Shown: positions 19,142 to 51,661, counted from the first letter of the stretch. The stretch: 64,000 nucleotides of DNA from Acidimicrobiia bacterium (GCA_003229305.1 QIDH01000093.1:9756-73755); one strand, 5' to 3'. Translations and numbers: made by a program. Notes: a model not told the origin generated them from the letters alone.

Positions 19142-20550
19142 GACGCACCTCCTTCCGCGGGTCGGCCAGAGTCGGGGGAGACCTCCGTCGATAGTCGGGG
19201 TCCGGCGATCGCTGCTTCGTGCATGAGTGTCTCCTCGGCCTGGGTGAGCGCCATGGCAGCGTCGTGTTCTTCGGTCATCTCCCATACAGCGAACATCGGG
19301 AAGATTTTGACAGTCACCGTCAGGAGGAGACAGAACATGGCCACACCTGAAGCCGCGATGGACCACTCCACGAAGTTCGGGCTATAACTGGCCGGCTCAT
19401 AGGGCATCAGAGGAACACGGAGTCCTGTGACGACGAGGAAGTAGCGCTCGATGAACATTGCGAGATTCACGAGAACCGCCGCGACCACGATGCCTCCAAT
19501 GGTGCGGGTCTTCGGGATCAGGACGATCGCGACCGGTACGACGAGCCCGAAAATGATGTAGAAGCTGAACATGCCGGAGAACTCTTCCAAGAACAGCTGA
19601 CGGAAGGCGAACTCCGATCCCTCCTCGAACTTGAACCCTGCGGTGAGGTACTCGCTGACATTGATATAGATCATGAAGAGGGCTAGCGACGCGAGCATGT
19701 AGCCGAGGTACTTGAACTGACGTTCGGTGATGTACTCCTCCCAGTGGTAGGTCTTTCTGAGGACCGCCATGATGATGATGAGCGTGGCCAATCCGGAGAA
19801 GACCGCCCCTGCAACGAACAGGATTCCGAAGATCGCGGTGTTCCATCCAACGCGAAGCGTCATGCCGAAGATCCACGAGACGACGGAGTGAACCGACACG
19901 GCGATCGGGATGATGATCAACGTCATGATCGTGATGGCCTTACCGAGGAGCTTGAACTGAGTCGGTGAGCCCTTCCAATCCAGGGCGAGTGTCCGGTAGA
20001 TGAAACTGCGTACGGCTCCGACCTTGCCGGCGAGTCGATCCCTGTACAGCGCCAAATCAGGGATCATCGGTGCGTACAGATAGATGAGGCTCGCTGTCAA
20101 GTACGTCGTGATCGCCATGACGTCCCACATGATCGGGGATTGCCAACGCCCATGGATGTACACGTTGAAGATCCGTTCGGGGCGGCCCATGTCGACGATG
20201 ATGAACCCCGCCCCGATCATCAGAGCGAACGCGGTGATGAACTCGGCGACTCGGGTGATCGAGGCTCGCCACTGTGCATTCGCCGCACGCAACATCGCCG
20301 ATATTACGGTGCCGGCCATGCTGACGCCGGTGAAGAAGATGAACATCGAAATGTACAGACCCCACGAGATGCGGTCCCTCATGTCGGTGACGTAGAGGCC
20401 GTCCTGCCACTGCTTCCAGTACTGGAATGCGCCGTTGCCAGTGATCAGGATCAGGAATCCCAGCCACAACCAGTACTTGTACGTGGTGACCCGTGTCGGC
20501 CTCGTTGTCTTGCTGATGAGCCGTTCACGCCAGTTGGTCACCGTGTCCAT
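19138..20550 (-). CDS. NrfD/PsrC-family polytopic membrane subunit (quinone/quinol-interacting)
   Basis: About 10 predicted TM helices, typical NrfD/PsrC/ActC size, directly downstream of an NrfC-type FeS protein. Start trimmed to the internal ATG at 20550; the ORF extends to 20586. Confidence 0.8.
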   Translation of the reverse strand: MDTVTNWRERLISKTTRPTRVTTYKYWLWLGFLILITGNGAFQYWKQWQDGLYVTDMRDRISWGLYISMFIFFTGVSMAGTVISAMLRAANAQWRASITRVAEFITAFALMIGAGFIIVDMGRPERIFNVYIHGRWQSPIMWDVMAITTYLTASLIYLYAPMIPDLALYRDRLAGKVGAVRSFIYRTLALDWKGSPTQFKLLGKAITIMTLIIIPIAVSVHSVVSWIFGMTLRVGWNTAIFGILFVAGAVFSGLATLIIIMAVLRKTYHWEEYITERQFKYLGYMLASLALFMIYINVSEYLTAGFKFEEGSEFAFRQLFLEEFSGMFSFYIIFGLVVPVAIVLIPKTRTIGGIVVAAVLVNLAMFIERYFLVVTGLRVPLMPYEPASYSPNFVEWSIAASGVAMFCLLLTVTVKIFPMFAVWEMTEEHDAAMALTQAEETLMHEAAIAGPRLSTEVSPDSGRPAEGGAS

Positions 20551-21551
20551 GACACTGCGCCCTCGGCACGTTCGATCCACGGCCAATCTGTGGGCATTCG
20601 ACCCTCTACTCCAGGGTCACGTCCGACGTCCTCGCCGTGGCCTGGCAGGTAGTGCACCCTCGGCTGGGTGCCAAGGTGTTCCTTCAACCGGTAGCCATTG
20701 TTCTCCGAGATCAATCGGGAAGCCTTGACGATGGTGCGACCGTTCGTCGCGATGTCCTCCTCGAGGTCTCCATACCAAATGGCGTCGTTTGGGCAGGCTT
20801 GTACACAGAAGGGAAGCGTCCCGTCCCTAACCATCTCAGGGCAGAAATCACACTTCATGACTGTTCCCCTGGTTGCGGGGACCTGCTGTTCCACCTGGTA
20901 GTCAGCGAGGGCTGCCTCCGGGGGTATTGGCGGGTCGCCCCAGTTGAAGAACCTACGGTCGTAAGGGCAGGCGGCCATGCAGATACGACATCCGATGCAC
21001 CGTTCTTGATCGATCAGAACGACTCCCTCCGGGGTGGAGAACGTCGCCCCGACGGGGCACACCTTCACACAAGGAGGATTCTCGCACTGCTGGCATGGAG
21101 TAGGGATAAATTGGGTGCCGCCGCCGCCAAAGTCCGCCTCATAGACCTCGATCCATTCCATGGGCTGTGGAGCGAAATGCCCCTCGATGCAGGCCGTCGT
21201 GCACTGGGGAGGGGTGCCCTGACTCTGGCAGCCGTCACACTTGGCGAGGTCGATGATCATCGACCATTGGCGGATTCGACCCGACTTGGTGGTTGCCGGC
21301 GCGGTGACGCTGATCTGATCGGTGGCGTCCGGTCCCCTGACGACATCGGCCACCAAACCGTCCATGACTCCACCGGGGGCCATCAGCGGAACTGCACCAA
21401 TGGCACCCATGGTGATGTATTTGAGTGCCTCTCTTCGGCTCACAGGCCTGATGGAGACAGGCGTCTCGGCCTGTCCTCTTGCCCGTGGTTTGGCTTGGTG
21501 GCGTCTCTTCGTCACATCTGCTCCCGATGTCGTGGAGGCTGGTCCTGGCAT
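20538..21551 (-). CDS. NrfC/PsrB/DmsB-type 4Fe-4S ferredoxin subunit with Tat signal
   Basis: Twin-arginine motif (SRREALKYITMGAIGA). Cys clusters: CDGCQSQG...C, CQQCENPPCVKVCP, CIGCRICMAACP and CDFCPEM...CVQACP. Confidence 0.8.
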   Translation of the reverse strand: MPGPASTTSGADVTKRRHQAKPRARGQAETPVSIRPVSRREALKYITMGAIGAVPLMAPGGVMDGLVADVVRGPDATDQISVTAPATTKSGRIRQWSMIIDLAKCDGCQSQGTPPQCTTACIEGHFAPQPMEWIEVYEADFGGGGTQFIPTPCQQCENPPCVKVCPVGATFSTPEGVVLIDQERCIGCRICMAACPYDRRFFNWGDPPIPPEAALADYQVEQQVPATRGTVMKCDFCPEMVRDGTLPFCVQACPNDAIWYGDLEEDIATNGRTIVKASRLISENNGYRLKEHLGTQPRVHYLPGHGEDVGRDPGVEGRMPTDWPWIERAEGAVSWTR

Positions 21552-39294: not shown

Positions 39295-41532
39295 CTAGCG
39301 GCTCTGAGATTCGCGGAGACCGGCCAGGACCCGATCAGGGGTCAGAGGGAACTCGCTGAACCATACGCCGGTGGCGTCGTGAAGGGCGGCGACGATTGCC
39401 GGCGCATACGGGATCAGCGGCATTTCGGCCATCCCTCGTGCTCCCCAAGGGCCGAGGGGGTCTGCGATTTCGACGATGACGGTCTCGATTCGATCAGGCA
39501 CATCTTTGGTTCCGGGCACCAGATAGCCGGAGAAGGTCGGGTTGGTGATTCGGCCTTCCACCACGGACAGCCGTTCGGACAAGACGTAGCCGTGGGCTTG
39601 GACTATCGCCCCTTCAACCTGGCCGCGGACGAGGATTGGATTGATCGCCCTTCCGACGTCAATGGCGCACCAGACAGTGCCGACCCGCACATGGCCGGTT
39701 CCAACGTCGACTGCCACGTCGACGATCTCGGCGACATATCCGAACGCGAACACTGGCGAGCCGACGCCGGTTTCCGGATCGAGAGCTTCGGTCGGCGGTG
39801 GCACATATCGGAAGTCACCGACTGCAGGCCGTTCCCCCTCGTTCCAAGCCTTGGTCGCCACTTCGGCGGCACCTTGGATGGCATTGCCGGACATGAAGGT
39901 CAATCGTGAGGCAGACGCAGACCCTGAGTCGCCAGAAGTGGCCGTGTCCGAGAATGTGCCGGTCACTTTGTCAAGCGGCAGCCCGACCGCCTCAGCCGTC
40001 ATCTGGAGAAAGGCAGTGTGGGCGCCTTGTCCGACGTCCGCGCCGGCGTGGGCGAGATGTGCCGACTCGATGTCTTCGTCGCCGTCCAGGGTGACGGTCG
40101 CTTCGCAGCGTTCAGGAAAGCCCATTGCGAAGCCGACGTTCTTGAGGGCACAGGCGACCCCCCGACCAGAGCGGGTGGATGGCTGGTGGGCGCCGAGCGT
40201 GCGGATGGCGCTCACGGACGGCGGGTTGGCGATCGCCTCGCCCCATCCGGCCGCGCCAGAGCATGCATCGATCACCGCGTCGATGCTCACGCCATCAGGC
40301 ATCACCGTCTGGGTGATGAAGTCATCGCCGTCGTGGAGGATGTTGGCCATCCGGATCTCGACGGGGTCCATGCCGAGCGCATGGGCCATCTTGTTCATCT
40401 GTGTCTCGGAGACGAAAGAGCCCTGGGGGCCTCCGAAACCTCTGAAGGCGCCGCCAGGCACTGAGTGTGAATACACAGCCCTGGAATCGACTCTCGCGTT
40501 CGGAATGTTGTACGGCCCGGTCAGGGAGAGGTGCAGGTTGGCGAGCACTTTGTTCGAGGTGTAGTTGTATGCGCCGGAGTCCAATACGGCGTCTGCCTCG
40601 ACTGCAACGATCTTTCCATCTGAGGTGGCGCCCCACCTGGCTGTGACCTGTGCTCGGTGCCGCTTGTGGTGGCCGACGATGCTCTCTTCGCGGTTCCACA
40701 CCGTTCGAATCGGTCGGCTGATTCCCCGGTCCCGCATTTTCAGCGCAGCAGCGGCCATGACGATTTGCAGGCTCATGTCCTCTCTGCCGCCAAAGGCGCC
40801 GCCGATCGCAGGGTAGATCACCCTCACGACTTCGGGCGGGAGGTCGAGGGCGTGGGCGATCTGGCCCCGGTCCTCGTGAGCCCATTGTCCGGCAACCTCG
40901 ACTGTGACCCTGCCATGGTCGTCGATGTAGGAGACGGCGGCTTCCGGCTGCAGGTATGCGTGTTCCTGGTGGGGGAGGGTGTAGGTGCCTTCGATGATGT
41001 GGTCCGCCATGGCCCAGCCGACTTCGATGTCCCCTTTTCGGATTTTCAGCTGGTAGTAGGTGTTGGTTTCGAGCCCGTTCTCGGGGTGGACCAACGCTCC
41101 GTTTGTTTCTGTTTCTGAGAAGTCCGGAGCCATCTGGAGCTGCTCCCAGGTGATGTCCAATGCCTTCGCTCCTGCCAGGGCGGCCTCCGTTGTTTCAGCG
41201 ATCACGACTGCGACCTGATCCGCTTCCCATCTCGACACGTCGGAAGGCACCTTCGACCTGCCAGTTCCGTCGACTCCAACCAACACAGGTTGGTCGAACA
41301 TGGTGAGCCCGTATTCGTTCATCGGGATGTCCGCCGCGGTGACAACATCGACGACGCCGGCTATTGCCACTGCCCGGTCCGTGCTCATGGACAACATGAG
41401 GGCGTGTGGTTGGTCCGAGAAGACCACCTTGGCCGTGAGTGCGTCTTTGGCTTCCAGATCTCCTGGATACAGCGCTGCCCCAGTCACCTTGGCATGACTG
41501 TCACGCCTGACTGCGTCGGCTCCGATGGTCAT
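39295..41532 (-). CDS. Xanthine dehydrogenase family molybdopterin-binding large subunit
   Basis: N-terminal a/b-hammerhead start (SHAKVTGAALYPGD) and Mo-cofactor binding blocks (GGAFGGRED; AFRGFGGPQG). The start ATG at 41532 is in an ATGA overlap with the upstream FAD/FeS gene. Confidence 0.85.
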   Translation of the reverse strand: MTIGADAVRRDSHAKVTGAALYPGDLEAKDALTAKVVFSDQPHALMLSMSTDRAVAIAGVVDVVTAADIPMNEYGLTMFDQPVLVGVDGTGRSKVPSDVSRWEADQVAVVIAETTEAALAGAKALDITWEQLQMAPDFSETETNGALVHPENGLETNTYYQLKIRKGDIEVGWAMADHIIEGTYTLPHQEHAYLQPEAAVSYIDDHGRVTVEVAGQWAHEDRGQIAHALDLPPEVVRVIYPAIGGAFGGREDMSLQIVMAAAALKMRDRGISRPIRTVWNREESIVGHHKRHRAQVTARWGATSDGKIVAVEADAVLDSGAYNYTSNKVLANLHLSLTGPYNIPNARVDSRAVYSHSVPGGAFRGFGGPQGSFVSETQMNKMAHALGMDPVEIRMANILHDGDDFITQTVMPDGVSIDAVIDACSGAAGWGEAIANPPSVSAIRTLGAHQPSTRSGRGVACALKNVGFAMGFPERCEATVTLDGDEDIESAHLAHAGADVGQGAHTAFLQMTAEAVGLPLDKVTGTFSDTATSGDSGSASASRLTFMSGNAIQGAAEVATKAWNEGERPAVGDFRYVPPPTEALDPETGVGSPVFAFGYVAEIVDVAVDVGTGHVRVGTVWCAIDVGRAINPILVRGQVEGAIVQAHGYVLSERLSVVEGRITNPTFSGYLVPGTKDVPDRIETVIVEIADPLGPWGARGMAEMPLIPYAPAIVAALHDATGVWFSEFPLTPDRVLAGLRESQSR

Positions 41533-42971
41533 GACCCAGCCTGCCCGTCGGTCATCGCAAGTGCCTCGATGATCGATTCGTATCCGGTGCATCTGCAGAT
41601 ATTTCCGCCAAGGCCTTCACGGAACTCCGAGGAAGTCAGGCCGGCGTGTTCGGAGAGGAGCGAGGAAGCACACATGACAAAACCAGGGGTGCAGAATCCG
41701 CATTGCACGGCCCCGAGTCTGACCAAATTGTCCTGAAGTCGGCGGTCCCGATCGGTGTTCAGTCCTTCGATGGTCGTGACCGAGTGTCCATCTGCAGCTG
41801 CGGCGGGTACGAGACAGGCGAGCACCGCTTGGCCGTCCATGTGAACTGTGCATGCGCCGCATTCGCCCTCTGCACAGCCTTCCTTGGTTCCGGTCAGGAG
41901 GGTGTCGGTTCCGTTGCGGGCGTTGGTCCTTATCCAATCGAGAAGCGTCTCGTGAGTGCCGTCGAGGCCGGCGACTTCGCTTCCGTTGACCTCAATGGAG
42001 ATGGAGTCCGTCGCTCCGATCGAAGTGGGACCGGACGAGTGGGAACTCTGGCCATTGTTCAGGGTGATGACCCGATCTGGCCACTGGTCTGCTTCCGAAC
42101 CGTCCGAGAGAGCTTTGAGCATCCGGGAAACTGCCAAGCGCACCATCTGGGTCCGGTACTCGGCCGTGGCCCTTCCATCGGATATGGGATTGACCTCGTC
42201 GGCGGCTGCCTGTGCGCAAGTTTCGATCGCCTCGTCTGTCAGCGCACCGCCCAACAAGAGATCGGCTGCGTTGGCCAGAACGACCACAGGGGCGACGCTG
42301 CCGAGCGCGATTCTTGCACCTTCGACCACCCCATCCGATTGTGAGATCACAATCGCGGCGTGCACAACTGAGATCGCCTGGGCCGACCGCAGGCCGACTT
42401 TGGCGAAGATTCCCGCCTGGTCGTGTCCGAGGCTGGGAAACGAGATCAGTGTGAGCATTTCGTTGGGCTTCATGACCGTCTTGCGCACGCCAATGTAGAA
42501 ATCGGACATGGCAACGGTTCGCACTCCCTCTCTCGAGGTGAGTTCTACGGTGGCGTCCATAGCCAGGAGCGCCGAGATGGTGTCGTTGGCCGGGCTGGCG
42601 GTGATCAGATTGCCTGCGACAGTGGCCTGGTTTCGTAGCTGAGCCGAGCCAACCTCGAGCGAGGCCTGGCCAAGGGGGAGTCCTTTGCGTCTGATGGTCT
42701 CGGATGCAACGACCTGGCGGTGAGTGGTGGAGGGGCCGAGCGTTACTGAATCGCCAACCTCCGAAATCCGGTCGAGTCCTTCGATTGCCGACAGGTCGAT
42801 CATGACCTCGACATCCCTGACCTTCCGCTGCATTTCGAGGAGCAGGTCCGTGGCTCCCGCGACGATGCGAGCCCGACCCTCATACTGATCCAGCAGTCGG
42901 ACGACTTCTTCGATGCTGGCAGGACGCAGGTACCTGTCGACCGCCCATGTGCGGTCCTGTACCTGGTGCAT
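41529..42971 (-). CDS. XDH-family electron-transfer subunit: N-terminal FAD-binding (CoxM-like) domain fused to C-terminal 2x[2Fe-2S] (CoxS-like) domain
   Basis: FAD domain (YLRPASIEEVVRLL...RIVAGATDLL). C-terminal plant-type and second 2Fe-2S motifs (CAEGECGACTV...; CGFCTPGFV...CRCTGY). The FAD-then-FeS order is the reverse of the common FeS-FAD arrangement. Confidence 0.8.
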   Translation of the reverse strand: MHQVQDRTWAVDRYLRPASIEEVVRLLDQYEGRARIVAGATDLLLEMQRKVRDVEVMIDLSAIEGLDRISEVGDSVTLGPSTTHRQVVASETIRRKGLPLGQASLEVGSAQLRNQATVAGNLITASPANDTISALLAMDATVELTSREGVRTVAMSDFYIGVRKTVMKPNEMLTLISFPSLGHDQAGIFAKVGLRSAQAISVVHAAIVISQSDGVVEGARIALGSVAPVVVLANAADLLLGGALTDEAIETCAQAAADEVNPISDGRATAEYRTQMVRLAVSRMLKALSDGSEADQWPDRVITLNNGQSSHSSGPTSIGATDSISIEVNGSEVAGLDGTHETLLDWIRTNARNGTDTLLTGTKEGCAEGECGACTVHMDGQAVLACLVPAAAADGHSVTTIEGLNTDRDRRLQDNLVRLGAVQCGFCTPGFVMCASSLLSEHAGLTSSEFREGLGGNICRCTGYESIIEALAMTDGQAGS

Positions 42972-43585
42972 CAGCCGGTCGTCCCTGTCGAGGCTCTTGA
43001 ACTGTTGTAGATCACGCTTCCGGCCTCCTGGTACATGACGAGGACCTCGGTCGCTTCGGAGCGCATCACGTCCCTGACCACCTCCACACCCCGCGACTCG
43101 AGCGATTCGATCCAGTTCGCCGGCTTGTCTCCCTCATCGAACCCAACGGCCCGAGCGTCCGAATCCCTGGCGCCGATGATCACTTGGGACACTCCGCTCC
43201 AAGGTGTTGCTCCAAGGCACATAGCGCACGGTTCGACGCTCGTGACCAGCACGGCCGGCCGGTTGCCTTGGTCGCCAAGGTCGAATCGACCGAGTCTGGC
43301 ACCGGCAATCGATATCGCGACAATTTCGGCGTGGGCGGTCGGGTTGGATTCCGGGACGACCAGATTGACGCCTGGAGCGATGAGGCGGTCCGTGGATCTG
43401 TCAAACACCGCTGCACCGAATGGCCCGCCAGTGTCCCGTTCGACGTTGTGTCTGGCAAGCATGGTTACCAGCGCCATCTTGTCGAGGGCGCTGGGATGGC
43501 CCTTGTCGAAATCGACGGCCTCATCCACCCAGTCTGGGAGCCGGCATTCGTATCCCATCGGTCCTTCGACCACGTCAGCCCCCAT
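42971..43585 (-). CDS. CDA-fold (cytidine/deoxycytidylate deaminase family) zinc deaminase, likely guanine deaminase-type
   Basis: Zinc-binding HAEIVAI...PCAMC motifs. The protein is longer than a tRNA adenosine deaminase and sits inside a purine-oxidation operon. Confidence 0.7.
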   Translation of the reverse strand: MGADVVEGPMGYECRLPDWVDEAVDFDKGHPSALDKMALVTMLARHNVERDTGGPFGAAVFDRSTDRLIAPGVNLVVPESNPTAHAEIVAISIAGARLGRFDLGDQGNRPAVLVTSVEPCAMCLGATPWSGVSQVIIGARDSDARAVGFDEGDKPANWIESLESRGVEVVRDVMRSEATEVLVMYQEAGSVIYNSSRASTGTTG

Positions 43586-43940
43586 TCTTGAGCGCGCTCA
43601 AGTAGTTGTAGATGGTGATGCGGCTCACGCCCATCGCCTCGCCAATATCTTCGATCGATTTACGGAGCCGGAACGCGCCCCTTTCGTCGAGGAGCAGCAC
43701 GGCGCGTTGTTTGGTTGCTCGATCCAGCTCGGCGAGGGGCGCGCCAAGTTGATGTTCGACCGTCGCTACGAGACGGTCGAGCGAAACCATGTCGGCCAAT
43801 CGCACTCCGACGGCCGGTTCGCCTTCCCAGTCGAGGGTGATGTCGCCTTGTTCGATCTCGTCCAACGGGATCACGGCCCCCCCGATCGCATCGATCAGCG
43901 GCTTCAATGTCAGAGCGAGCGGGTGGGGACGTGCACTCAC
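43575..43940 (-). CDS. PucR-like C-terminal HTH DNA-binding protein (putative regulator of the nucleobase operons)
   Basis: C-terminal HTH (IEDIGEAMGVSRITIYNYLSALK). Start set to the GTG at 43940, in a GTGA overlap with the upstream small gene. The longer ORF adds an Arg-rich N-terminus that looks non-native. Confidence 0.45.
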   Translation of the reverse strand: MSARPHPLALTLKPLIDAIGGAVIPLDEIEQGDITLDWEGEPAVGVRLADMVSLDRLVATVEHQLGAPLAELDRATKQRAVLLLDERGAFRLRKSIEDIGEAMGVSRITIYNYLSALKNGG

Positions 43941-44179
43941 GAGTCCTCCATCACGACCTCGACGAGAACCCGGTGTGCGCCGTCGCTGACCGCTGACACC
44001 ACCATGGCCGCGATCGCGTCGGAAACTTCCGCCACGTTTCCAGTCACCGATGAACCGAAAGGACCCATCGACACTGCGAGACCCTTGGTCTCCATTGCCT
44101 CGATTCCGGACAGGACGTGGGGCCCTGGTGAGTCTGCGGAGAACGGTTCGATCACGAACTCGACGGTACAATCGCTCAT
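43937..44179 (-). CDS. Small protein, MTH1187/YkoF (DUF77)-like
   Basis: 80 aa, beginning VEFVIEPF...SGIEAMETKGLAV, like the YkoF/MTH1187 family. It is the first gene of the minus-strand nucleobase operon. Confidence 0.4.
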   Translation of the reverse strand: MSDCTVEFVIEPFSADSPGPHVLSGIEAMETKGLAVSMGPFGSSVTGNVAEVSDAIAAMVVSAVSDGAHRVLVEVVMEDS

Positions 44180-44309
44180 GTGATCCGGCTCGCGGGGGTG
44201 CCATGTCCGCCCGATTGGTTGAGATTTCGACAGGCCGCTGGGAAGAGACCGGAGCGGGTTGCTCCCGACATGAAGCTTCCTCTCGTCTAATGCTGAGGAC
44301 GCTACCGGC

Positions 44310-44365
44310 GATTTTACAAAATGTCAAAAAACACTTGACAAAATGTTAAGCGATCGACACAATCG
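44310..44365 (+). promoter_or_regulatory. AT-rich divergent promoter/operator region: sigma70-like TTGACA-17-CACAAT plus two direct copies of ACAAAATGT
   Basis: ACAAAATGT sits at 44315..44323 and 44337..44345, 22 bp apart. TTGACA at 44334..44339 and CACAAT at 44357..44362 are oriented toward the + operon that starts at 44442. This is the only strongly AT-rich stretch in a ~65% GC context. Confidence 0.4.
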
Positions 44366-44441: not shown

Positions 44442-45374
44442 TTGGCGAGGAAGATCACGGTTGGCGCGGCGCAGATGGGGGAGATTGCGCGTACCGAGAC
44501 CCGAGTCGAAGTGGTCAAACGGTTGATCACCTTGCTAGACGAGGGCGCCGAGCGTGGTTGTGACTTGGTCGTATTTCCGGAGCTGACCCTTACAACCTTC
44601 TTCCCGAGATGGTTCATCGAAGACAAGCAAGAGATCGAGGCCTGGTTCGAAGCCGAGATGCCGGGGCCGGACACCAAACCGCTGTTCGATCGAGCGTCGG
44701 AACTGGGGGTGGGATTCTGTCTCGGGTACGCCGAACTGTTCACAGACGCCGATGGGACCAAACATCGATACAACACCCAGATCCTCGTCGAGAAGGACGG
44801 CTCGGTGGTCGCAAAGTACCGCAAGGTGCATGTGCCGGGTCACGAGGAGCACGAACCGGACCGCCCCTTTCAACATGCGGAGCGGTACTACTTTGAACCG
44901 GGTCCAGATGGCTTCGATGTGTGGGACGCCTTTGGGGGGACCGTCGGAATGGCAATCTGCAATGATCGTCGTTGGCCCGAGACGTATCGGGTGATGGGGC
45001 TCAAGGGCGTCGAACTCATCCTGATCGGGTACAACACTCCGCTCCACTACGAGCCGGACCCCCAGCAGAACGCGTTGGCCGGTTTCCACAACCACCTCGT
45101 GATGCAATCAGGCGCCTATCAGAACGGCACCTTTGTGGTCGGCGTCGCCAAGGGCGGAATCGAGGAGGGCGTTGACTCTTTGGCGCAGTCCGCCATCTAT
45201 GCCCCCTCCGGCCAGATCGTCGCGCAGTGCATCACAACCGGGGATGAGATCGCAGTTGCCACTCTTGATCTCGATTTCTGCGGGTACTACAAAAACACAC
45301 TCTTCGACTTCGATCGATACCGACAACCTCAGCATTACGGGATCATCACCGAGATCAACGGAGGCCAGGAATGA
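44442..45374 (+). CDS. Nitrilase-superfamily C-N hydrolase, N-carbamoyl-amino-acid amidohydrolase / beta-ureidopropionase-like
   Basis: Has the CN_hydrolase catalytic Glu (VVFPEL) and Cys (MAICND) contexts (VGAAQMGEI...DLVVFPEL...; AICNDRRWPE). Confidence 0.8.
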   Translation: MARKITVGAAQMGEIARTETRVEVVKRLITLLDEGAERGCDLVVFPELTLTTFFPRWFIEDKQEIEAWFEAEMPGPDTKPLFDRASELGVGFCLGYAELFTDADGTKHRYNTQILVEKDGSVVAKYRKVHVPGHEEHEPDRPFQHAERYYFEPGPDGFDVWDAFGGTVGMAICNDRRWPETYRVMGLKGVELILIGYNTPLHYEPDPQQNALAGFHNHLVMQSGAYQNGTFVVGVAKGGIEEGVDSLAQSAIYAPSGQIVAQCITTGDEIAVATLDLDFCGYYKNTLFDFDRYRQPQHYGIITEINGGQE

Positions 45375-47944
45375 CGACGTTGTTCGAGCTGAACGGAAAC
45401 CAAGTCGAGGTATACGAACAGCACCCCCATCTACTCGCGGCTCTCCGCAACGAGCTCGGAGTCACCTCCCCCAAGGACGGATGTTCTCCTTCCGGCCAAT
45501 GCGGAGCGTGCACTGTCCTGGTCGATGGCAGGGCGAAGATCAGTTGCTCGATTTCGCTGGACAAGGCAGAAGGCAAATCGATCACCACCCTCGAAGGGTT
45601 CGACCAAACCGAGCGAGACCGATATGCCAACGCATTTGCGGCCACAGGAGCGCTGCAATGTGGTTTCTGCACACCAGGCATAGTTGTGCGAGCCAAAGCG
45701 CTGATCGATCAGAAGGGTCCAGATCTCGACCGGGCGACGATTGAAGGTCGACTTGGCGCGCACCTGTGTCGGTGCACTGGCTACACCAAGATCATCGAGG
45801 CTGTTGAGCTGCTCGCCTCCGGAGAGTCGATCCCCATTCGTGGGCGTTCGGCCAAGATCGGCGGCGACGGCATCAAGTATGAGGCGAACGAGCTGTCGCT
45901 AGGCGATCGTGGATTCGTCGACGACATCGCCATCGACGGGATGTTGCACGCCGTCCTTCGGTTCACCGATCACGCCCGTGCAGATGTCCTCGCCATCGAC
46001 ACATCCGCGGCACTCGCGGCCGACGGCGTTGTTGCCGTCTACACCGCGGCCGACATTCCTGGTGATCTTCGGGTTGGGATTCTCTACAAGGACTGGCCGG
46101 TGATGATCCCGGAGGGAGGCAGGACCTCTTATCGAGGCGATGTCCTCGCCATCGTGCTCGCAAATGATGTCGTGAGAGCCAGGGCTGCGGTCGAGCTGGT
46201 CGAGGTCGCCTACGAAGTTCACACGCCGTTTTCTGACGTCAACGTTGCCCTCGCCTCCGACGAAGACGTGGTGTGGGAATTGGACGGCAACGTACTGTCG
46301 ACCTCCGAATATGCCAGAGGAGACGTAGATCTTGCCCTGGCAGAAGCGGCCCATGTCGTTCACGAGGTGTTCACGACTCAGAGAGTCGAGCATGCGTTCT
46401 TGGAGCCCGAATCGACTGTCGCTGTGCCAGGTGAACACGGGACACTGCATGTCTATTCGGGCGGGCAAGGGATTTGGGACGACCGGGATCAGATCGCCGC
46501 GATCCTCGCCGTGGACACGTCGAAGGTCACCGTTGAGCTGATTTCGAACGGGGGAGCGTTCGGCGGCAAGGAGGACATGTCCAACCAGGGCCATACGGCT
46601 CTCGCCGCACACCTGTCGGGTCTGCCCGTCAAGAGCACGCTCACCAGGCCAGAATCCTTCCTCATGCATCCGAAGCGCCACCCGATCACGACGGAGATCT
46701 GGATGGGTTGCGACACCGAGGGCAGGGTCAACGCGGTCAAGGCCAGGATGATCGGGGATTCCGGTCCGTATGCCTCAGTCGGGATGAAGGTCCTCGAACG
46801 AGCGGCCGGTCACGCCTGCGGGCCGTATGCGGTGGAAAACGTCGACGTGAGGGCCGTTGCTGTTCGAACGAACAACCCGGTTTGTGGAGCCTTCAGGGGA
46901 TTCGGCGCCAACCAGGCCCAGTTCGCCACCGAGGGGGCGATCGATCGCCTCGCCGAGAAAGTGGGCATCTCAGGCTGGGAGATCAGGGAGCGCAACGTCG
47001 CCCGTCCGGGCTCGGTGTGGGGGCCTGGCCAGATCATGGATGACGGAGTGCTGGGCATCGTCGAGTGCCTGGACGCGGTCCGTCCTCATTACGAGGCAGC
47101 CATCGAAGCGGGCAAGGCCGTTGGTATCGGGGCCGGCATCAAGAACTCCGGCCTCGGCAACGGATTCAAGGAGGTCGCGAAGGCGGTTGTCAGGTTCAAC
47201 GAGGAGGGCACGATCGACGTGCGCCACGCCTGGACAGAGATGGGCCAGGGGGTGCACACCGTCGCCCTCCAGGTCGCGGCCGACCTGCTCAGCGCTGACC
47301 CGGACAAGATTCGAGTGCTCGCCGATACCAGCCGCGACCTCTCCGCCGGTCAAACGACCGGTTCGAGAGGAACGCTGATGGCAGCCGGATCGATTGAGGA
47401 CGCGTGTCGAAATGCCATCGCAGACGGCTGCCAGATAGACATCGACTATCACGGTTCTTACACGGTGGACTGGACGAACTCGATCAACGACGGTGTCGAC
47501 AACCCGATCATCCATTCGGCTTTCGGCTATGCGTGCCAGGTAGTCATCGCCGACCCTGACACCGGCAAGATCGAGCGAGTGGTGGCTGCTCACGACGTAG
47601 GAAGAGCGATCAATCCTGTACTGGCGGCCGGTCAGGTCGAAGGGGCCGTTCACATGGGTCTCGGCTACGCGCTCACCGAAGAATTTCCAACAGACGAAGA
47701 CGCCATGCCGACCAAGTCGACCCTCAGGCAACTCGACATAATCCGACCTAAGGACATGCCAGAAATCGAAGTGATACTCATAGAGGTGCCCCAGCCGAGG
47801 TCGCCATTTGGGATCAAAGGTGTCGGGGAAATCGGACTCGTGCCGACCGCAGGAGCGGTGGCCGCCGCCTATCACGCGCTCGACGGCAAGTGGAGAACTC
47901 GCCTCCCGCTGAACGTGCACGAACCCCTCGAAATCGGAGACTGA
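45371..47944 (+). CDS. FAD-less molybdenum hydroxylase: N-terminal 2x[2Fe-2S] domain fused to molybdopterin-binding domain (XdhD / aldehyde oxidoreductase-like)
   Basis: ATGA overlap with the upstream gene. 2Fe-2S motifs (GCSPSGQCGACTV; CGFCTPGIV; CRCTGY), then the a/b-hammerhead and MoCo-binding domains (GGAFGGKED; AFRGFGANQA). No FAD domain. 857 aa. Confidence 0.85.
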   Translation: MTTLFELNGNQVEVYEQHPHLLAALRNELGVTSPKDGCSPSGQCGACTVLVDGRAKISCSISLDKAEGKSITTLEGFDQTERDRYANAFAATGALQCGFCTPGIVVRAKALIDQKGPDLDRATIEGRLGAHLCRCTGYTKIIEAVELLASGESIPIRGRSAKIGGDGIKYEANELSLGDRGFVDDIAIDGMLHAVLRFTDHARADVLAIDTSAALAADGVVAVYTAADIPGDLRVGILYKDWPVMIPEGGRTSYRGDVLAIVLANDVVRARAAVELVEVAYEVHTPFSDVNVALASDEDVVWELDGNVLSTSEYARGDVDLALAEAAHVVHEVFTTQRVEHAFLEPESTVAVPGEHGTLHVYSGGQGIWDDRDQIAAILAVDTSKVTVELISNGGAFGGKEDMSNQGHTALAAHLSGLPVKSTLTRPESFLMHPKRHPITTEIWMGCDTEGRVNAVKARMIGDSGPYASVGMKVLERAAGHACGPYAVENVDVRAVAVRTNNPVCGAFRGFGANQAQFATEGAIDRLAEKVGISGWEIRERNVARPGSVWGPGQIMDDGVLGIVECLDAVRPHYEAAIEAGKAVGIGAGIKNSGLGNGFKEVAKAVVRFNEEGTIDVRHAWTEMGQGVHTVALQVAADLLSADPDKIRVLADTSRDLSAGQTTGSRGTLMAAGSIEDACRNAIADGCQIDIDYHGSYTVDWTNSINDGVDNPIIHSAFGYACQVVIADPDTGKIERVVAAHDVGRAINPVLAAGQVEGAVHMGLGYALTEEFPTDEDAMPTKSTLRQLDIIRPKDMPEIEVILIEVPQPRSPFGIKGVGEIGLVPTAGAVAAAYHALDGKWRTRLPLNVHEPLEIGD

Positions 47945-47945
47945 C

Positions 47946-48962
47946 GTGACCGCCTCGACTCAGGGACTGGTCTGTTCGCACCATCACCTCTATTCGGCTC
48001 TGGCCAGAGGAATGCCAACACCTCCGAAGATGGCAACGAACTTTCGCGAGATCCTCGAACAGGTCTGGTGGAGGCTGGACATGGCGCTCGACCTCGAAAT
48101 GGTGCGCTGGTCCGCGAAGCTGGGCGCGCTCGAGGCGCTGGAAAGCGGCACGACCGCAATCATCGATCACCACGCCTCTCCGAACGCGATCGAGGGTTCG
48201 TTGTCGGTCATCGCGGACGCTTGTGCCGAGGTGGGGGTGCGGGTCGCCTGCGCCTACGAAGTGACCGACCGCCACGGCGCAGATGGGGCACGTCGAGGGC
48301 TCGAAGAGAATCGGCGCTTTCTCGCAGAGGGCGGTAGGGGATGGGTCGGAGCCCATGCCTGTTTCACGCTCTCAGACGACACGCTCGATCGTGTGGTTGG
48401 CTTGGGCCAGGACACAGGTGCAGGCGTACATATTCACGTCCACGAAGGGCCAGATGATTCCGAGGCGGGCGCCCGTCTCTCCGGAAGGACAGACGACCGT
48501 TGGCTGCTGGCCCACTGTGTGTCTCTCGAAACCGAGCTGGCTGGCACGATTCTGCACAATCCCGAATCGAACATGAACAACGCGGTCGGTTACGCGAACC
48601 CCGTCAGATTCAACAACGCGGTGGCGCTTGGAACGGATGGGATAGGTGCCGACATGCTCGGCTCGTTCAGAGCCGCCTATCTCAAACATCGTGAATCGGA
48701 TGTCACTGCGACTCCAGATGCTGCCTGGTCTTGGTTGGAGACCGGTTGGGATCTCTTTCCGGAGGCCAGGACGGATGCCGTGTCCTGGTCATACGAGCCG
48801 ATCGATCCCTGGCACCTCGCCTTCACTCCTGGAGTGCGTCCAATCGAGATAGCCATCGATGACCAGCTGGTGTTCGCAGATGGATCGCCCACGTTGGTCG
48901 ATGGGGACGAGATCAGGGCCAAGGCCGCCGAACAGGCGACCAGATTGCATGCCAGATTGTGA
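47946..48962 (+). CDS. Amidohydrolase-superfamily metallo-hydrolase (SsnA / chlorohydrolase / cyclic amidase-like), N-terminally short
   Basis: GTG start one nucleotide after the upstream stop. HxH metal motif near the N-terminus (CSHHHLYSALARGMP) and downstream His/Asp ligands (HIHVHEGPDD; GTDGIGADM). Confidence 0.7.
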   Translation: MTASTQGLVCSHHHLYSALARGMPTPPKMATNFREILEQVWWRLDMALDLEMVRWSAKLGALEALESGTTAIIDHHASPNAIEGSLSVIADACAEVGVRVACAYEVTDRHGADGARRGLEENRRFLAEGGRGWVGAHACFTLSDDTLDRVVGLGQDTGAGVHIHVHEGPDDSEAGARLSGRTDDRWLLAHCVSLETELAGTILHNPESNMNNAVGYANPVRFNNAVALGTDGIGADMLGSFRAAYLKHRESDVTATPDAAWSWLETGWDLFPEARTDAVSWSYEPIDPWHLAFTPGVRPIEIAIDDQLVFADGSPTLVDGDEIRAKAAEQATRLHARL

Positions 48963-50746
48963 CGGAAGAGATGAAACAGCCGCCGCTTACGCCGATGAGC
49001 TTGACCACGATGCTCGGCCGGATTGCCCACGAGTGGGAGACCAGGACCCGGATATTCGACCTGCCTTCTGCCCGGATCTGGAAGCCGGATCCCGAGGTCG
49101 ACCTTGGCATCGAGTTCCTTGGCAGGCCGGCCGCGACCCCGCTCGGTCCGGCCGCCGGTCCCCATACCCAGATGGCCCAGAACATCGTTCTCGCCTGGCT
49201 GGGCGGGTCGAGAGTGTTCGAGCTCAAGACGGTGCAGGTCATCGACGATTTGGATATCGCCAGACCCTGCATCGACATGCAGACAATCGGGTACAACATC
49301 GAATGGAGCCAGGAACTGAGTGTTCCGGCCTCGATCGATGAATACGTCAAGGCCTGGATGATCATCGAGATCCTCAAACGTTGGGAGCCCCTCTCGGATC
49401 ACGTCGGTCCGGAAACCGGCGCCTTGGTGTTTGACATGTCCGTTGGGTATGACCTCGCAGGGATCTCTTCTCCGAAGATCACGAACTTCATCAACACCCT
49501 TCAAGACGCTTCCGAGAGGATCGATGCCCTGCGGGCCGAGATTCCTGCACCCTTCGAAGAGTTCAGAGATTTCGAATTCCCGACGAAGATCGCTGACACT
49601 CTCACCTTGTCCACGTTCCACGGATGCCCTCCTGACGAGATCGAGAGCATCGTGCGATACCTGATGGACACTCACGGTCTCGATGCAATCGTCAAGCTAA
49701 ATCCGACCTTGCTGGGGTTCGAGAGAGTGGACGCTCTTCTGCACGAAACGCTCGGCTACGACGATGTGACCATTTCGAGGGACGCCTTTGACGCCGACCT
49801 TCAGTTCGATCGGGCTCTCGAACTCATTGGGGGTCTGCGAGCCCACGCTGACGCCGGGGGCCGGCGGTTCGGTATCAAGCTCAGCAACACCCTCGTCGTG
49901 GTGAACGAGAAGGGTTGGATGCCAGATGATCCGATGTATCTGTCAGGCCCTCCGCTTCATGTGATCGCTTCGTCGATCCTCAATCGCCTGGTCGAGGCCC
50001 TCCCAGGCGTATTCGACCTCCCGGGTCAGGAAGGGTCCTCGCCGGTCACGTTCTCCGCTGGAGTGACCAAAACGAACGTTGCGGACACGATCGCCATGGG
50101 AGTGGCTCCGGCCACGATCTGTTCCGATCTACTCAAACCCGGCGGGTACGGCAGGCTCAAGCCGATGCTCAATGCACTAGTGGCGGAGATCGGCAAGGCC
50201 GGCATGACTTCGTTGCGAGATTGGCGGCAGGCCAGGCACGCAGAAGCGGTCGCAGCCGGGCACCGAGACTGGGTGGCAGCACACGTGTCCTCGATCACCG
50301 GCGAAGGGGTCGGCCTCTACGACAAGATCGGCAATTCGAAAATGCCTCGGCGGGTCGAATCCGAACTTCAGATGTGGGGTTGTGTCGCTTGCAATCTGTG
50401 CGTAACGGTCTGTCCGAACGGAGCGTTCATGAAGTTGCCATCGCCCGCCGAGTTGGCAGAGCAAATCGGTGGCAGGTGGCAATACATAGTACTGGCCGAG
50501 TTGTGCAACGACTGCGGAAACTGCCTTACCTTCTGCCCTGAGGATGGAGATCCCGCTCAGGTCAAGCCTCGGCTCTATCTCGACGAATCCCGATTTGCCG
50601 GAGCGGACGGCCAAGCCTTCCAGCTCACTGCCAACGGGCTGAATCTTGGTGCGCTGGCTTCGGTTGGATGGGAATCTGAGCTGGAGAGACTCGCAGCGGT
50701 GATTGCCGGAGATCAAGGAGTGCCGATTCGTGCCGCCGACCTCTGA
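48959..50746 (+). CDS. Dihydroorotate/dihydropyrimidine dehydrogenase-like TIM-barrel flavoprotein with C-terminal 2x[4Fe-4S] ferredoxin domain (PreA / YgfK-like)
   Basis: ATGA overlap. C-terminal CVACNLCVTVCP and CNDCGNCLTFCP clusters in PreA-like spacing. The upstream TIM-barrel has a GIKLS-type block. No NAD(P)H or FAD-binding PreT-like module is encoded nearby. Confidence 0.6.
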   Translation: MTEEMKQPPLTPMSLTTMLGRIAHEWETRTRIFDLPSARIWKPDPEVDLGIEFLGRPAATPLGPAAGPHTQMAQNIVLAWLGGSRVFELKTVQVIDDLDIARPCIDMQTIGYNIEWSQELSVPASIDEYVKAWMIIEILKRWEPLSDHVGPETGALVFDMSVGYDLAGISSPKITNFINTLQDASERIDALRAEIPAPFEEFRDFEFPTKIADTLTLSTFHGCPPDEIESIVRYLMDTHGLDAIVKLNPTLLGFERVDALLHETLGYDDVTISRDAFDADLQFDRALELIGGLRAHADAGGRRFGIKLSNTLVVVNEKGWMPDDPMYLSGPPLHVIASSILNRLVEALPGVFDLPGQEGSSPVTFSAGVTKTNVADTIAMGVAPATICSDLLKPGGYGRLKPMLNALVAEIGKAGMTSLRDWRQARHAEAVAAGHRDWVAAHVSSITGEGVGLYDKIGNSKMPRRVESELQMWGCVACNLCVTVCPNGAFMKLPSPAELAEQIGGRWQYIVLAELCNDCGNCLTFCPEDGDPAQVKPRLYLDESRFAGADGQAFQLTANGLNLGALASVGWESELERLAAVIAGDQGVPIRAADL

Positions 50747-50824
50747 TCCCAAGGTGCGGCTCCTCGGAACACGTGCAGCATTTGACGTTCCAAATTCCCG
50801 CGAACAGCGCTGCGGCCCTACTGG

Positions 50825-51661
50825 TTAGAAGATCGCGGTGGCCAGGCGGCGGCGATAGTCGCCGACCATGGGTGTTTCGCTGCCGAGAACTTCGAAGATG
50901 TCGAGCATCGCGATGCGGGCATCGTCTGAGCGTTCACCCCTCGCTTCGACCAGTGCCAAAAGACCATTCAGCGCGGCCTCGTAGTCACCGGCGGCGCCCT
51001 TTGCTCTTGCCAGATCGAATGCCGCGGATTCGTCCTCCGGGTCGGCGGCAACGGCGGCCTCCAGTTGGCCGATGTCCAGGTCGGTTGCACTACTCATCCT
51101 GGCGGCGGCCAGCATCGCTTTTACTTCTTGGGTCTCCGAAACGGGCTCAAGGATGTTGATCGCTTCTTCGTTGTCACCTCGATCGAGCAGCAGGCCTGCC
51201 AAGGTGACCGCCGCATCGTGGTGGGTGCTGTCCACCTCGAGAACTCCACGTAACAAACGTTCGGCGCCCGGTTCGTCGCCTGCCTCGTACAGACGATCCG
51301 CATCCGCAACGGCCTGGTCGAGATCGGATGGAAGGAGGGCTTCGATGAACTCTCGGACTTGTGATTCTGGCAGTGCGCCGGTAAACCGACTGACCGGCTG
51401 GCCGTCCTTGAAGGCGATCACGGTCGGGATGCCCTGAATGCCGAACTCGCTTGCCAACTGTTGGTTCCGGTCGGAATCAATCTTGGCAAGCCTGATCCGG
51501 CCACCTGCCTCGCCGACCACCTTTTCGATTATGGGTGAGAGGACCTTGCACGGACCGCACCAGTCCGCCCAAAAGTCCACCAGCACAGGAACTTCGTGGG
51601 ACCGATCCAGGACTTCTCTTTGGAAATCTGTCGTTTCGACGTCGCTGACATATGTGGTCAT
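50825..51661 (-). CDS. Thioredoxin domain fused to TPR-like C-terminal domain (YbbN/CnoX-like co-chaperone)
   Basis: WCGPC active site followed by an Ala/Leu-rich helical repeat region. Confidence 0.75.
   Translation of the reverse strand: MTTYVSDVETTDFQREVLDRSHEVPVLVDFWADWCGPCKVLSPIIEKVVGEAGGRIRLAKIDSDRNQQLASEFGIQGIPTVIAFKDGQPVSRFTGALPESQVREFIEALLPSDLDQAVADADRLYEAGDEPGAERLLRGVLEVDSTHHDAAVTLAGLLLDRGDNEEAINILEPVSETQEVKAMLAAARMSSATDLDIGQLEAAVAADPEDESAAFDLARAKGAAGDYEAALNGLLALVEARGERSDDARIAMLDIFEVLGSETPMVGDYRRRLATAIF

Follow-up and report, generated by a model that had tools for sequence, protein, structure and literature searches.

A four-gene operon was analysed in a 64,000-nucleotide (nt) stretch of DNA from an Acidimicrobiia bacterium (GCA_003229305.1, QIDH01000093.1:9756-73755; hereafter the window, meaning the whole stretch), together with 80 related loci from metagenome-assembled genomes (MAGs) mostly labelled Acidimicrobiia and cited below by L numbers. 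The operon encodes an N-carbamoyl-D-amino-acid hydrolase (DCase; gene 1), an XdhAC-type molybdenum (Mo) hydroxylase lacking a flavin adenine dinucleotide (FAD) domain (gene 2), a trimmed SsnA amidohydrolase (gene 3) and a short YgfK (gene 4). We consider that it probably represents the upper part of reductive uric acid degradation, the '2,8-dioxopurine' or 'yanthine' route, in a stripped-down form typical of Acidimicrobiia. This assignment is favoured because a guanine deaminase homologue and a conventional xanthine dehydrogenase (XDH) adjoin the operon and place it in a purine context, and because a diaminopropionate ammonia-lyase, an M20 amidase, YgeW/YqeA and YqeB/YqeC recur in the clusters of relatives. 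Four features are new here: the YgfK has no reduced nicotinamide adenine dinucleotide phosphate (NADPH)/FAD module, the SsnA is trimmed, a D-carbamoylase takes the place of YgeW or UacY, and no hydantoinase was found in the cluster.

The reductive urate pathway was described in 2025 in anaerobic gut bacteria, and its enzymes are oxygen-sensitive. In Escherichia coli, XdhD-YgfM converts urate to 2,8-dioxopurine with NADH, and YgfK and SsnA with NAD(P)H convert 2,8-dioxopurine to ureidomethylhydantoin and 5-ureidodihydrouracil, YgfK alone giving no product; HyuA, YgeW or UacY, YgeY and YgeX carry the pathway on to pyruvate via 2,3-diaminopropionate (Li et al., PMC12507026). The same pathway is present in Clostridium sporogenes, in which a FAD-less, SelD-requiring XdhAC interconverts urate and 2,8-dioxopurine when supplied with methyl viologen, NAD(P)H being ineffective (Liu et al., bioRxiv 10.1101/2025.04.24.650524). 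A C. difficile variant employs a PydA-like reductase, UacX, and a Mo enzyme, both without FAD modules, for which ferredoxin was proposed as the donor (PMC12507026). An initial annotation of the window, made from sequence, had likened the operon to the E. coli cluster and held that the latter has no established substrate, a statement overtaken by these studies (PMC12507026; bioRxiv 10.1101/2025.04.24.650524). The logic of reduction, ring opening and decarbamoylation that it envisaged is borne out by experiments on the enzymes of E. coli and Clostridium (PMC12507026). We found no description in the literature searched of an Acidimicrobiia form of the pathway. The SsnA and YgfK described here score below the cut-offs of TIGR03314 and TIGR03315, and such a form would have been missed by the published survey (PMC12507026) if its markers, IPR017700 and IPR017701, use those same cut-offs.

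Profile searches upheld the annotated domains (CN_hydrolase, FAD-less Mo hydroxylase, Amidohydro_1/SsnA and 4Fe-4S dicluster), as well as the homology to the E. coli ygfK-ssnA-xdhD module. Gene 4 matched positions 5-395 of the 1012 in the YgfK profile TIGR03315 with 425 bits (cut-off 835.3). Its residues 10-407 align with E. coli YgfK 5-405 at 38% identity and its iron-sulphur (FeS) domain (475-554) aligns with 898-976, the GltD-like FAD/NADPH module of E. coli YgfK (406-897, ~490 residues) being replaced by ~67 residues. Judged by its sequence, gene 4 is thus not a full-length YgfK (TIGR03315 / IPR017701; ~1000 amino acids (aa), GltD-like module, score above cut-off). The 4Fe-4S dicluster domain carries two CxxCxxCxxxCP motifs (C475-C485 and C516-C526), and the invariant barrel motifs ELK90, RPC104ID, K246-L-N-P and N310-T suggest flavin binding. 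In the NCBI records, short YgfK proteins are named '4Fe-4S dicluster domain-containing protein' or 'putative selenate reductase'.

Pfam DHO_dh (PF01180) had no match in gene 4 and the PreA profile NF006183 matched its FeS part only (E 0.0017). A PDB sequence search returned matches to the ferredoxin part and no solved relative of the barrel, which was therefore judged from a predicted structure. The best Foldseek matches of the AlphaFold2 model (predicted local distance difference test 84.8, predicted template modelling score 0.90) were pig dihydropyrimidine dehydrogenase (DPD) and dihydroorotate dehydrogenases (DHOD; E ~1e-8, probability 1.00), with 14-16% identity to PreA/DPD, so that homology is detectable at fold level only. 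The earlier 'PreA/DPD-like' label therefore stands for architecture and fold, including the two [4Fe-4S] motifs, but not for membership of the PreA/DHO_dh sequence family. The model predicts a DHOD/DPD-fold triosephosphate isomerase (TIM) barrel, which the two [4Fe-4S] motifs follow. As a YgfK N-domain homologue directly downstream of SsnA, gene 4 is placed as a dioxopurine reductase would be, and by analogy it may reduce 2,8-dioxopurine with electrons from an external FeS or flavin donor. In agreement with the earlier statement that a PreT-like NAD(P)H/FAD partner is lacking, tblastn with the E. coli YgfK middle module and other queries found no PreT/GltD-like gene in the window.

Gene 3 matched only positions 60-341 of the SsnA profile NF005540 (259.7 bits, cut-off 444) and fell below curated SsnA membership (TIGR03314 / NF005540 / IPR017700, ~440-aa profile) also at 245.9 versus 455.5 bits. 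It is 33% identical to residues 57-438 of E. coli SsnA and begins at the HxH metal motif (H12-H14), lacking the ~56-residue N-terminal beta-sandwich segment of the E. coli protein while retaining the metal motifs HxH, HIH and GTDG. All 46 Acidimicrobiia homologues clustered from the related loci share this short form, which is therefore not a truncation artefact. A pseudogene origin of the short SsnA and short YgfK was also considered and rejected, as length and motifs are constant across dozens of genomes. By analogy with E. coli, gene 3 would open the reduced dioxopurine ring hydrolytically.

Gene 2 comprises Fer2, Fer2_2, hammerhead and MoCoBD_1/2 domains, that is two [2Fe-2S] domains (cysteines 38/44/47/59 and 97/100/133/135), a hammerhead and two molybdenum cofactor-binding domains, and Pfam searches found neither FAD_binding_5 nor CO_deh_flav_C in it. 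It matched the selenium-dependent xanthine dehydrogenase profile TIGR03311 almost end to end (protein 7-848, profile 5-842 of 848), with a score marginally under the curated cut-off (821.7 versus 830.45 bits). Among proteins of solved structure, the FAD-less Desulfovibrio aldehyde oxidoreductase is its best relative. Aligned end to end, gene 2 shows 42% identity to the one Mo enzyme in the Enterococcus faecalis uricolytic cluster, likewise 857 aa long, and only 24% to E. coli XdhD. In an alignment with rat xanthine oxidoreductase, residues E401, R477, R509, F511 and E820 fall on its GGKE, ERA, AFRGFG and VGE motifs, and we take them to be Glu802, Arg880, Arg912, Phe914 and Glu1261 in bovine numbering. 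The E. faecalis enzyme has identical active-site residues, whereas XdhD carries Q449, N525, Q557 and Y559 at the first four positions, keeps the last Glu and has an insertion carrying E606. From these features gene 2 appears to be a Mo hydroxylase of the XdhAC/XdhD type expected in a 2,8-dioxopurine cluster, with a proposed role as a urate/2,8-dioxopurine oxidoreductase (DOPDH-like). Since its active site is of the xanthine-oxidising type and differs from that of XdhD, its regiochemistry and direction can only be inferred.

Gene 1 belongs to Pfam PF00795 (CN_hydrolase) and matched the solved DCases 8i99, 6lcg and 1fo6 over its full length in the PDB search (E 3.7e-118 to 1e-108), the best being 8i99 (E 3.7e-118, residues 1-307 aligned). 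It retains an intact catalytic triad (E47/K128/C173) and, for carboxylate binding, N174, R176 and R177. Fold, triad, Asn/Arg/Arg set and similarity to solved enzymes all point to a DCase (EC 3.5.1.77), which would take the place of YgeW or UacY. The stereochemistry fits, because the known route has a D-specific hydantoinase and, for the 2-ureido group, the D-aminoacylase-like UacY, and gene 1 is a D-carbamoylase.

An open reading frame (ORF) check returned four plus-strand genes at exactly the coordinates of the initial annotation (Table 1). Overlaps had been described at all junctions; those of genes 1 and 2 (ATGA at 45371) and genes 3 and 4 (GTGA at 48959) are indeed 4 nt long, but genes 2 and 3 do not overlap and have a 1-nt spacer (TGAcGTG, 47944/47946). 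The true start of gene 4 may be an internal ATG that would give the length of most homologues, and the four genes are tightly packed whichever start applies. A ribosome-binding site (GAGGAGG) lies upstream of the TTG start of gene 1. The 115-nt divergent intergenic region contains, by promoter scan, a promoter-like sequence for the operon (TTGACA, 17 nt, CACAAT), the -35 element of which is overlapped by two copies, TTTACAAAATGTCAA and TTGACAAAATGTTAA, of a 15-nt palindrome-like motif of the TTGACAAAATGTCAA type (44313-44349, 22 nt apart). This motif is kept upstream of the orthologous first gene in at least 10 related genomes altogether, in two copies in L002-L004, L006, L008 and L012, and is also found there in L017, L025, L036 and L038. 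Because of this conservation it is probably an operator, and the divergent HTH_22 regulator is the putative protein binding it to control the operon. An Rfam scan of 38-52 kb of the window found no riboswitch or other RNA.

Table 1 Features of the operon and its divergent neighbourhood, in window coordinates
Feature	Position	Strand	Product or description	Remarks
Gene 1	44442..45374	+	N-carbamoyl-D-amino-acid hydrolase, DCase-type CN hydrolase, 310 aa	TTG start
Gene 2	45371..47944	+	XdhAC-type FAD-less molybdenum hydroxylase, 857 aa	
Gene 3	47946..48962	+	Trimmed SsnA amidohydrolase, 338 aa	
Gene 4	48959..50746	+	Short YgfK, 595 aa	591 aa if ATG 48971 used
Divergent control region	44313..44363		Two 15-nt palindromic operator-like motif copies and sigma-70-like promoter	
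Regulator	43575..44327	-	HTH_22 (YheO-type) transcriptional regulator	Pfam PF13309 at residues 183-243
Deaminase	42971..43585	-	Guanine deaminase of the cytidine deaminase (CDA) fold (NE0047 type)	PF00383; PDB matches 2g84, 1wkq
XDH electron-transfer subunit	41529..42971	-	Xanthine dehydrogenase FAD + 2x[2Fe-2S] subunit, 480 aa	PF00941, PF03450, PF01799; TIGR02963, NF043083, NF043084
XDH Mo subunit	39295..41592	-	Conventional xanthine dehydrogenase Mo subunit, 765-aa ORF	TIGR03196 pucD 475.8 bits; NF043082; Pfam hammerhead + MoCoBD_1/2

The regulator, the deaminase and the two XDH subunits are all transcribed divergently from the operon. The deaminase matched PDB 2g84 (E 2.9e-41), deposited as 'cytidine and deoxycytidylate deaminase zinc-binding region', which we take to be the NE0047 guanine deaminase, and the Bacillus subtilis guanine deaminase 1wkq (E 2.8e-17); it is syntenic with the XDH genes in ~10 relatives. 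In the XDH electron-transfer subunit, one polypeptide carries the FAD domain ahead of the two 2Fe-2S domains, an order opposite to that of the TIGR02963 xanthine_xdhA profile, where the FAD domain matches positions 193-463, in the latter half. The ORF of the Mo subunit overlaps this upstream gene by 64 nt, for which reason its real start is probably ~20 codons downstream. Its aligned active-site residues are E271, N352, R384 and F386; N352 occupies the position of the ERA-motif Arg, presumably Arg880 of mammalian xanthine oxidoreductase, and E. coli XdhD likewise has Asn there (N525). The proposed role of this conventional XDH is conversion of xanthine or hypoxanthine to urate. Downstream of the operon lie unrelated housekeeping genes encoding a thioredoxin-tetratricopeptide repeat (TPR) protein, dapA, RNase J and FtsK, and a pyruvate dehydrogenase complex is also encoded in the window.

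With two Mo enzymes side by side, their roles could be exchanged, XdhAC making urate from xanthine or hypoxanthine and the FAD enzyme acting as an NAD(P)H-dependent urate 6-dehydroxylase comparable to E. coli XdhD-YgfM, in which case electrons from XdhAC could feed YgfK and pay in part for converting xanthine to the ring-opened product. We regard this as unlikely. It would agree with the alignment of XdhAC residues to the GGKE and ERA motifs (which we take to be Glu802 and Arg880), with the name xanthine dehydrogenase given to TIGR03311 and with the Asn shared by the FAD-type Mo subunit and XdhD, the latter being known to work with a FAD subunit and NADH (PMC12507026). XdhAC, however, lies inside the operon in more than 50 loci, whereas the FAD-type enzyme is adjacent in ~10 only, and the best families of the FAD-type subunit are the PucD/XdhA xanthine dehydrogenases. 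In addition, the E. faecalis cluster has an XdhAC-type enzyme only, with the same residues, and the C. sporogenes XdhAC, of the same FAD-less make-up by name and described domains, is the dehydroxylase.

Co-conservation of the four genes, expected if they act together as first annotated, was borne out among the related loci. Of the 33 loci flanked by 9 kb or more in each direction, 24 contain all four, and at least six gene orders occur, including carbamoylase-XdhAC-SsnA-YgfK, or C-X-S-K (36 loci), K-C-X-S, K-C-X, S-K-C-X, and C-X-K with S on the other strand, which argues for functional linkage rather than frozen synteny. The SsnA-YgfK adjacency is the most constant, being conserved in most loci, and the pair is kept without XdhAC nearby in some relatives (L002, L009, L010 and L015). 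Homologues of the short YgfK number in thousands, and a scan in which each species was represented by a single genome found them in at least 590 genomes. Most of the 120 best measure 580-620 aa, with a few fragments or proteins of up to 638 aa, and those with a named source are mostly from Actinomycetota/Acidimicrobiia MAGs, including Ilumatobacter and sponge-associated lineages.

Further genes recur around the operon in these relatives. Diaminopropionate ammonia-lyase (NF006058, 321.8 bits, cut-off 276) was found in 14 of the 80 loci; in 13 of these, among them the closest relatives (L001, L002 and L004-L008), it directly adjoins the short YgfK, an association that requires the substrate carbon at the CH level, that is, the 2,8-dioxopurine route. 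An amidase of the M20 hydantoinase/carbamoylase family occurs in 14 loci, a BMP-type ATP-binding cassette (ABC) transporter in 26 and the HTH_22 regulator family in 19. YgeW and YqeA (carbamate kinase) are present in L072 and YqeA alone in L014, and YqeB and YqeC are present in L002 and YqeC alone in L064. In L002 (L002:16169-19993), whose short YgfK is 80% identical, the operon lacks XdhAC, and the YqeC and YqeB homologues (selenium-cofactor accessory proteins) lie ~6-10 kb downstream beside a different Mo hydroxylase; in L064, YqeC directly follows the short YgfK. Because of these occurrences, some Acidimicrobiia may use a labile-selenium Mo cofactor.

The architecture of YgfK was surveyed among the best 150 representatives at 50% identity, the GltD-like module being absent from 85 and clearly present in 55. 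In a rough tree all full-length forms fall in one half, mixed with some short ones, which indicates that the module-less architecture is diverse and not confined to one tip. A third length class of 690-790 aa (P0122-P0170) combines the barrel and two [4Fe-4S] clusters with a longer linker or C-terminal tail and has no GltD-like module. Two Acidimicrobiia MAG loci (L075:3966-11478 and L078:374-7889) contain both a short YgfK beside XdhAC and a full-length YgfK with the GltD-like module, the latter on the opposite strand and directly beside a short SsnA. None of the 150 representatives was found to join the YgfK barrel to a Mo enzyme or to SsnA in one protein.

Under the favoured assignment, guanine would be deaminated to xanthine by the divergent CDA-fold enzyme, and xanthine or hypoxanthine oxidised to urate by the FAD-containing XDH. 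The XdhAC-type enzyme would then remove the C6 oxygen of urate in a two-electron reduction to 2,8-dioxopurine, chemistry demonstrated with XdhAC of C. sporogenes and with XdhD-YgfM of E. coli, a more distant enzyme (bioRxiv 10.1101/2025.04.24.650524; PMC12507026). The short YgfK would pass two further electrons through its [4Fe-4S] clusters to the barrel flavin and reduce the dioxopurine ring, as shown for full-length YgfK, and the trimmed SsnA would hydrolyse the reduced ring and so pull an unfavourable reduction forward, as shown for E. coli SsnA. A second ring opening would fall to an enzyme outside the operon, after which the D-carbamoylase would remove the 2-ureido group, replacing YgeW or UacY. 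In relatives, an M20 carbamoylase acting on the 3-ureido group and diaminopropionate ammonia-lyase would complete the route to pyruvate and ammonia. Because an NAD(P)H or FAD entry site is absent from both redox enzymes, a separately encoded electron donor would be needed, for example ferredoxin or flavodoxin, in line with the proposal made for the Clostridial enzymes.

A different electron economy had been suggested in the initial annotation, in which hydroxylation of an N-heterocycle drives ring reduction in a redox-neutral net hydration. This coupling lacks support, because the two characterised redox steps from urate, those of the Mo enzyme and YgfK, are both electron sinks and require an outside donor. 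In its closed form, the Mo enzyme would hydroxylate an N-heterocycle with a free C-H (for example 2-oxopurine or 8-oxopurine to 2,8-dioxopurine) and pass the two electrons through its 2Fe-2S clusters directly to the 4Fe-4S clusters and flavin of the short YgfK, with ring opening and decarbamoylation to follow. Such a circuit would call for a 6-deoxy-oxopurine as substrate, for which the locus suggests no source. The genes are tightly packed and co-conserved, both proteins are without an entry module for NAD(P)H or FAD and have no donor gene nearby, and in L075 and L078 it is the short YgfK that stands beside XdhAC and the full-length one that stands beside SsnA, all of which would suit direct transfer. 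The XdhAC active site also resembles that of an oxidising xanthine dehydrogenase, and C. sporogenes XdhAC is bidirectional in vitro (bioRxiv 10.1101/2025.04.24.650524). Set against this, the guanine deaminase and FAD-XDH neighbours supply xanthine or urate and not a 6-deoxypurine, the ammonia-lyase beside the short YgfK in 13 related loci points to the 2,8-dioxopurine route from urate, where both steps consume electrons, SsnA rather than XdhAC is the constant partner of YgfK, XdhAC being absent nearby in the relatives named above, and the 150 representatives included no YgfK-Mo enzyme fusion. We also know of no abundant source of 2- or 8-oxopurine. A closed circuit of this kind is therefore very unlikely, and in a weaker version electrons from xanthine or hypoxanthine oxidation might be recycled into the reductive steps. 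We further entertain, with little confidence, that XdhAC and the short YgfK, possibly with the FAD-XDH, form a self-contained FeS-wired redox unit in which oxidation of hypoxanthine or xanthine to urate pays for both reductions, to 2,8-dioxopurine and on to the dihydro compound, without free NAD(P)H or ferredoxin, and that SsnA opens both rings, which would explain the missing hydantoinase.

Several observations weigh against assignment of the operon to reductive urate degradation. The XdhAC, SsnA and YgfK homologues all score below their curated NCBIfam cut-offs, and the active site of gene 2 carries the residues of a classical xanthine-oxidising enzyme, unlike E. coli XdhD. E. coli HyuA (hydantoinase/dihydropyrimidinase) gave no significant tblastn match in the window or the 80 related loci, which leaves the step making the free carboxylate for the D-carbamoylase unaccounted for. 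Neither diaminopropionate ammonia-lyase (YgeX) nor an M20 amidase is encoded in the window, and homology to the nearest relative ends ~10 nt past the YgfK stop (50747-50830 compared with L001:6315-7233 and L006:11780-12944). No electron donor gene was found nearby by tblastn with the YgfK middle module, YgfT, YgfS and YgfM. Because L075 and L078 hold both forms, short and full-length YgfK may not be equivalent and may differ in role or electron donor. Lastly, the Acidimicrobiia hosts are believed to be aerobic, in keeping with the pyruvate dehydrogenase complex encoded in the window, and the known pathway is from anaerobes.

The sub-threshold scores of all three core proteins would allow that the operon acts on another N-heterocycle, such as a pyrimidine, a 5-substituted hydantoin, nicotinate or a pterin, its resemblance to the urate route being superficial. 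D-carbamoylases are classically linked to hydantoin and D-amino-acid metabolism, and a hydantoinase and an ammonia-lyase were not found in the window. Against this, the Mo enzyme keeps residues aligned with what we take to be the purine-binding positions of xanthine oxidoreductase, the guanine deaminase and XDH are adjacent, and the ammonia-lyase, YgeW/YqeA and YqeB/YqeC of relatives are specific companions of the dioxopurine pathway. We attach hardly any probability to a substrate outside this pathway.

Reductive urate degradation is known from several arrangements with which the operon can be compared. It shares with the E. coli xdhD-ygfM/ygfK/ssnA cluster the YgfK barrel and C-terminal FeS domain, SsnA, a nearby 2x[2Fe-2S] Mo hydroxylase and the same expected order of dehydroxylation, reduction, ring opening and cleavage of ureido groups. 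It differs in lacking the ~490-residue module of E. coli YgfK and the N-terminal 56 residues of E. coli SsnA, in a Mo enzyme without the FAD partner (YgfM) and with an active site different from that of XdhD, and in having a DCase-type CN hydrolase, with HyuA not found, where E. coli uses HyuA, YgeW/YqeA, YgeY and YgeX. The E. faecalis EF_2563-2582 type cluster (L082; ssnA-ygfK-hydA-dpaL-ygeY-ygeW-arcC...selD-yqeC-yqeB) has a single Mo hydroxylase, which resembles gene 2 in architecture, length and active site, and the C. sporogenes XdhAC, with FeS and Mo cofactor domains and no use of NAD(P)H, is likened to gene 2 by description. In contrast to the window, these Firmicute clusters have a full-length NADPH-dependent YgfK, a full-length SsnA, a hydantoinase, YgeY, YgeW with carbamate kinase, selD/yqeB/yqeC and a nearby flavodoxin and pyruvate:ferredoxin oxidoreductase. 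YgeY, selD, yqeB and yqeC were searched for in the window and not found, and YqeB/YqeC are confined to two of the related Acidimicrobiia loci.

The C. difficile UacX/UacY variant is similar in that neither its reductase nor its Mo enzyme has an NAD(P)H/FAD entry, ferredoxin being the supposed donor for both, and in that UacY cuts the 2-ureido group hydrolytically and irreversibly, as opposed to phosphorolysis by YgeW. UacX, however, is of the PF01180 PydA family and the window reductase of the YgfK family, and UacY is a D-aminoacylase-type amidohydrolase whereas the window ureido hydrolase is a nitrilase-superfamily DCase. Reductive pyrimidine catabolism (PreT/PreA or DPD) is comparable in the architecture of PreA, where a DPD-like flavin barrel is followed at the C terminus by two [4Fe-4S] clusters, and, like hydantoinase routes, in the order of reduction, opening by a cyclic amidohydrolase and decarbamoylation; the window D-carbamoylase is a close homologue of the industrial DCases of the hydantoinase/D-carbamoylase route. 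Pyrimidine catabolism has a dihydropyrimidinase as the opener and PreT, whereas the window has an SsnA-type (TRZ/ATZ-like) opener, no PreT and an added Mo hydroxylase.

These findings suggest that a large environmental clade also carries the pathway described in 2025, in a form that curated models and published surveys would miss. No new class of biochemistry is opened thereby, the locus being a real, conserved operon and a variant of a recently solved pathway, known from anaerobes and found here in a clade regarded as aerobic. If the assignment is correct, the pathway would extend to marine and soil nitrogen and purine cycling, the short YgfK would provide a minimal YgfK for mechanistic work, and the questions of the electron donor to the FAD-less enzymes and of the second ring opening without a hydantoinase would be sharpened.

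A number of minor observations were made in the window and its relatives. A second TRZ/ATZ-type amidohydrolase, full-length at ~460 aa and resembling guanine or 8-oxoguanine deaminases, lies near the operon in four relatives (L043:6826-8211, L030:2196-3578, L058:870-2330 and L080:2774-4177) and could be either a guanine deaminase or the missing second ring opener. After the short YgfK, where the closest relatives have the ammonia-lyase as a fifth operon gene, the window has the convergent thioredoxin-TPR gene. Clustering of all ORFs of the 80 loci revealed no recurrent ferredoxin, flavodoxin or reductase, many of the small clusters being arginine-rich shadow ORFs. The only window match in the tblastn searches for donors was an unrelated DsrO-like FeS protein 24 kb away. 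It belongs to a DsrO/DsrP-like (Qrc or alternative-complex-III-like) pair at 19138-21551 on the minus strand, consisting of a 4Fe-4S subunit and an integral membrane subunit; the pair, the sole and weak window match to E. coli YgfS/YgfT, is probably unrelated to the operon. An unrelated 1476-aa Lhr-type ATP-dependent helicase (NF007284, 1413 bits) is encoded at 11365-15795 on the minus strand. At the start of a public MAG contig (CALCCX010000002.1; L001:1-150), an Illumina adapter, AATGATACGGCGACCACCGAGATCTACACTCTTTCCCTACACGACGCTCTTCCGATCT, is present directly upstream of the carbamoylase gene.

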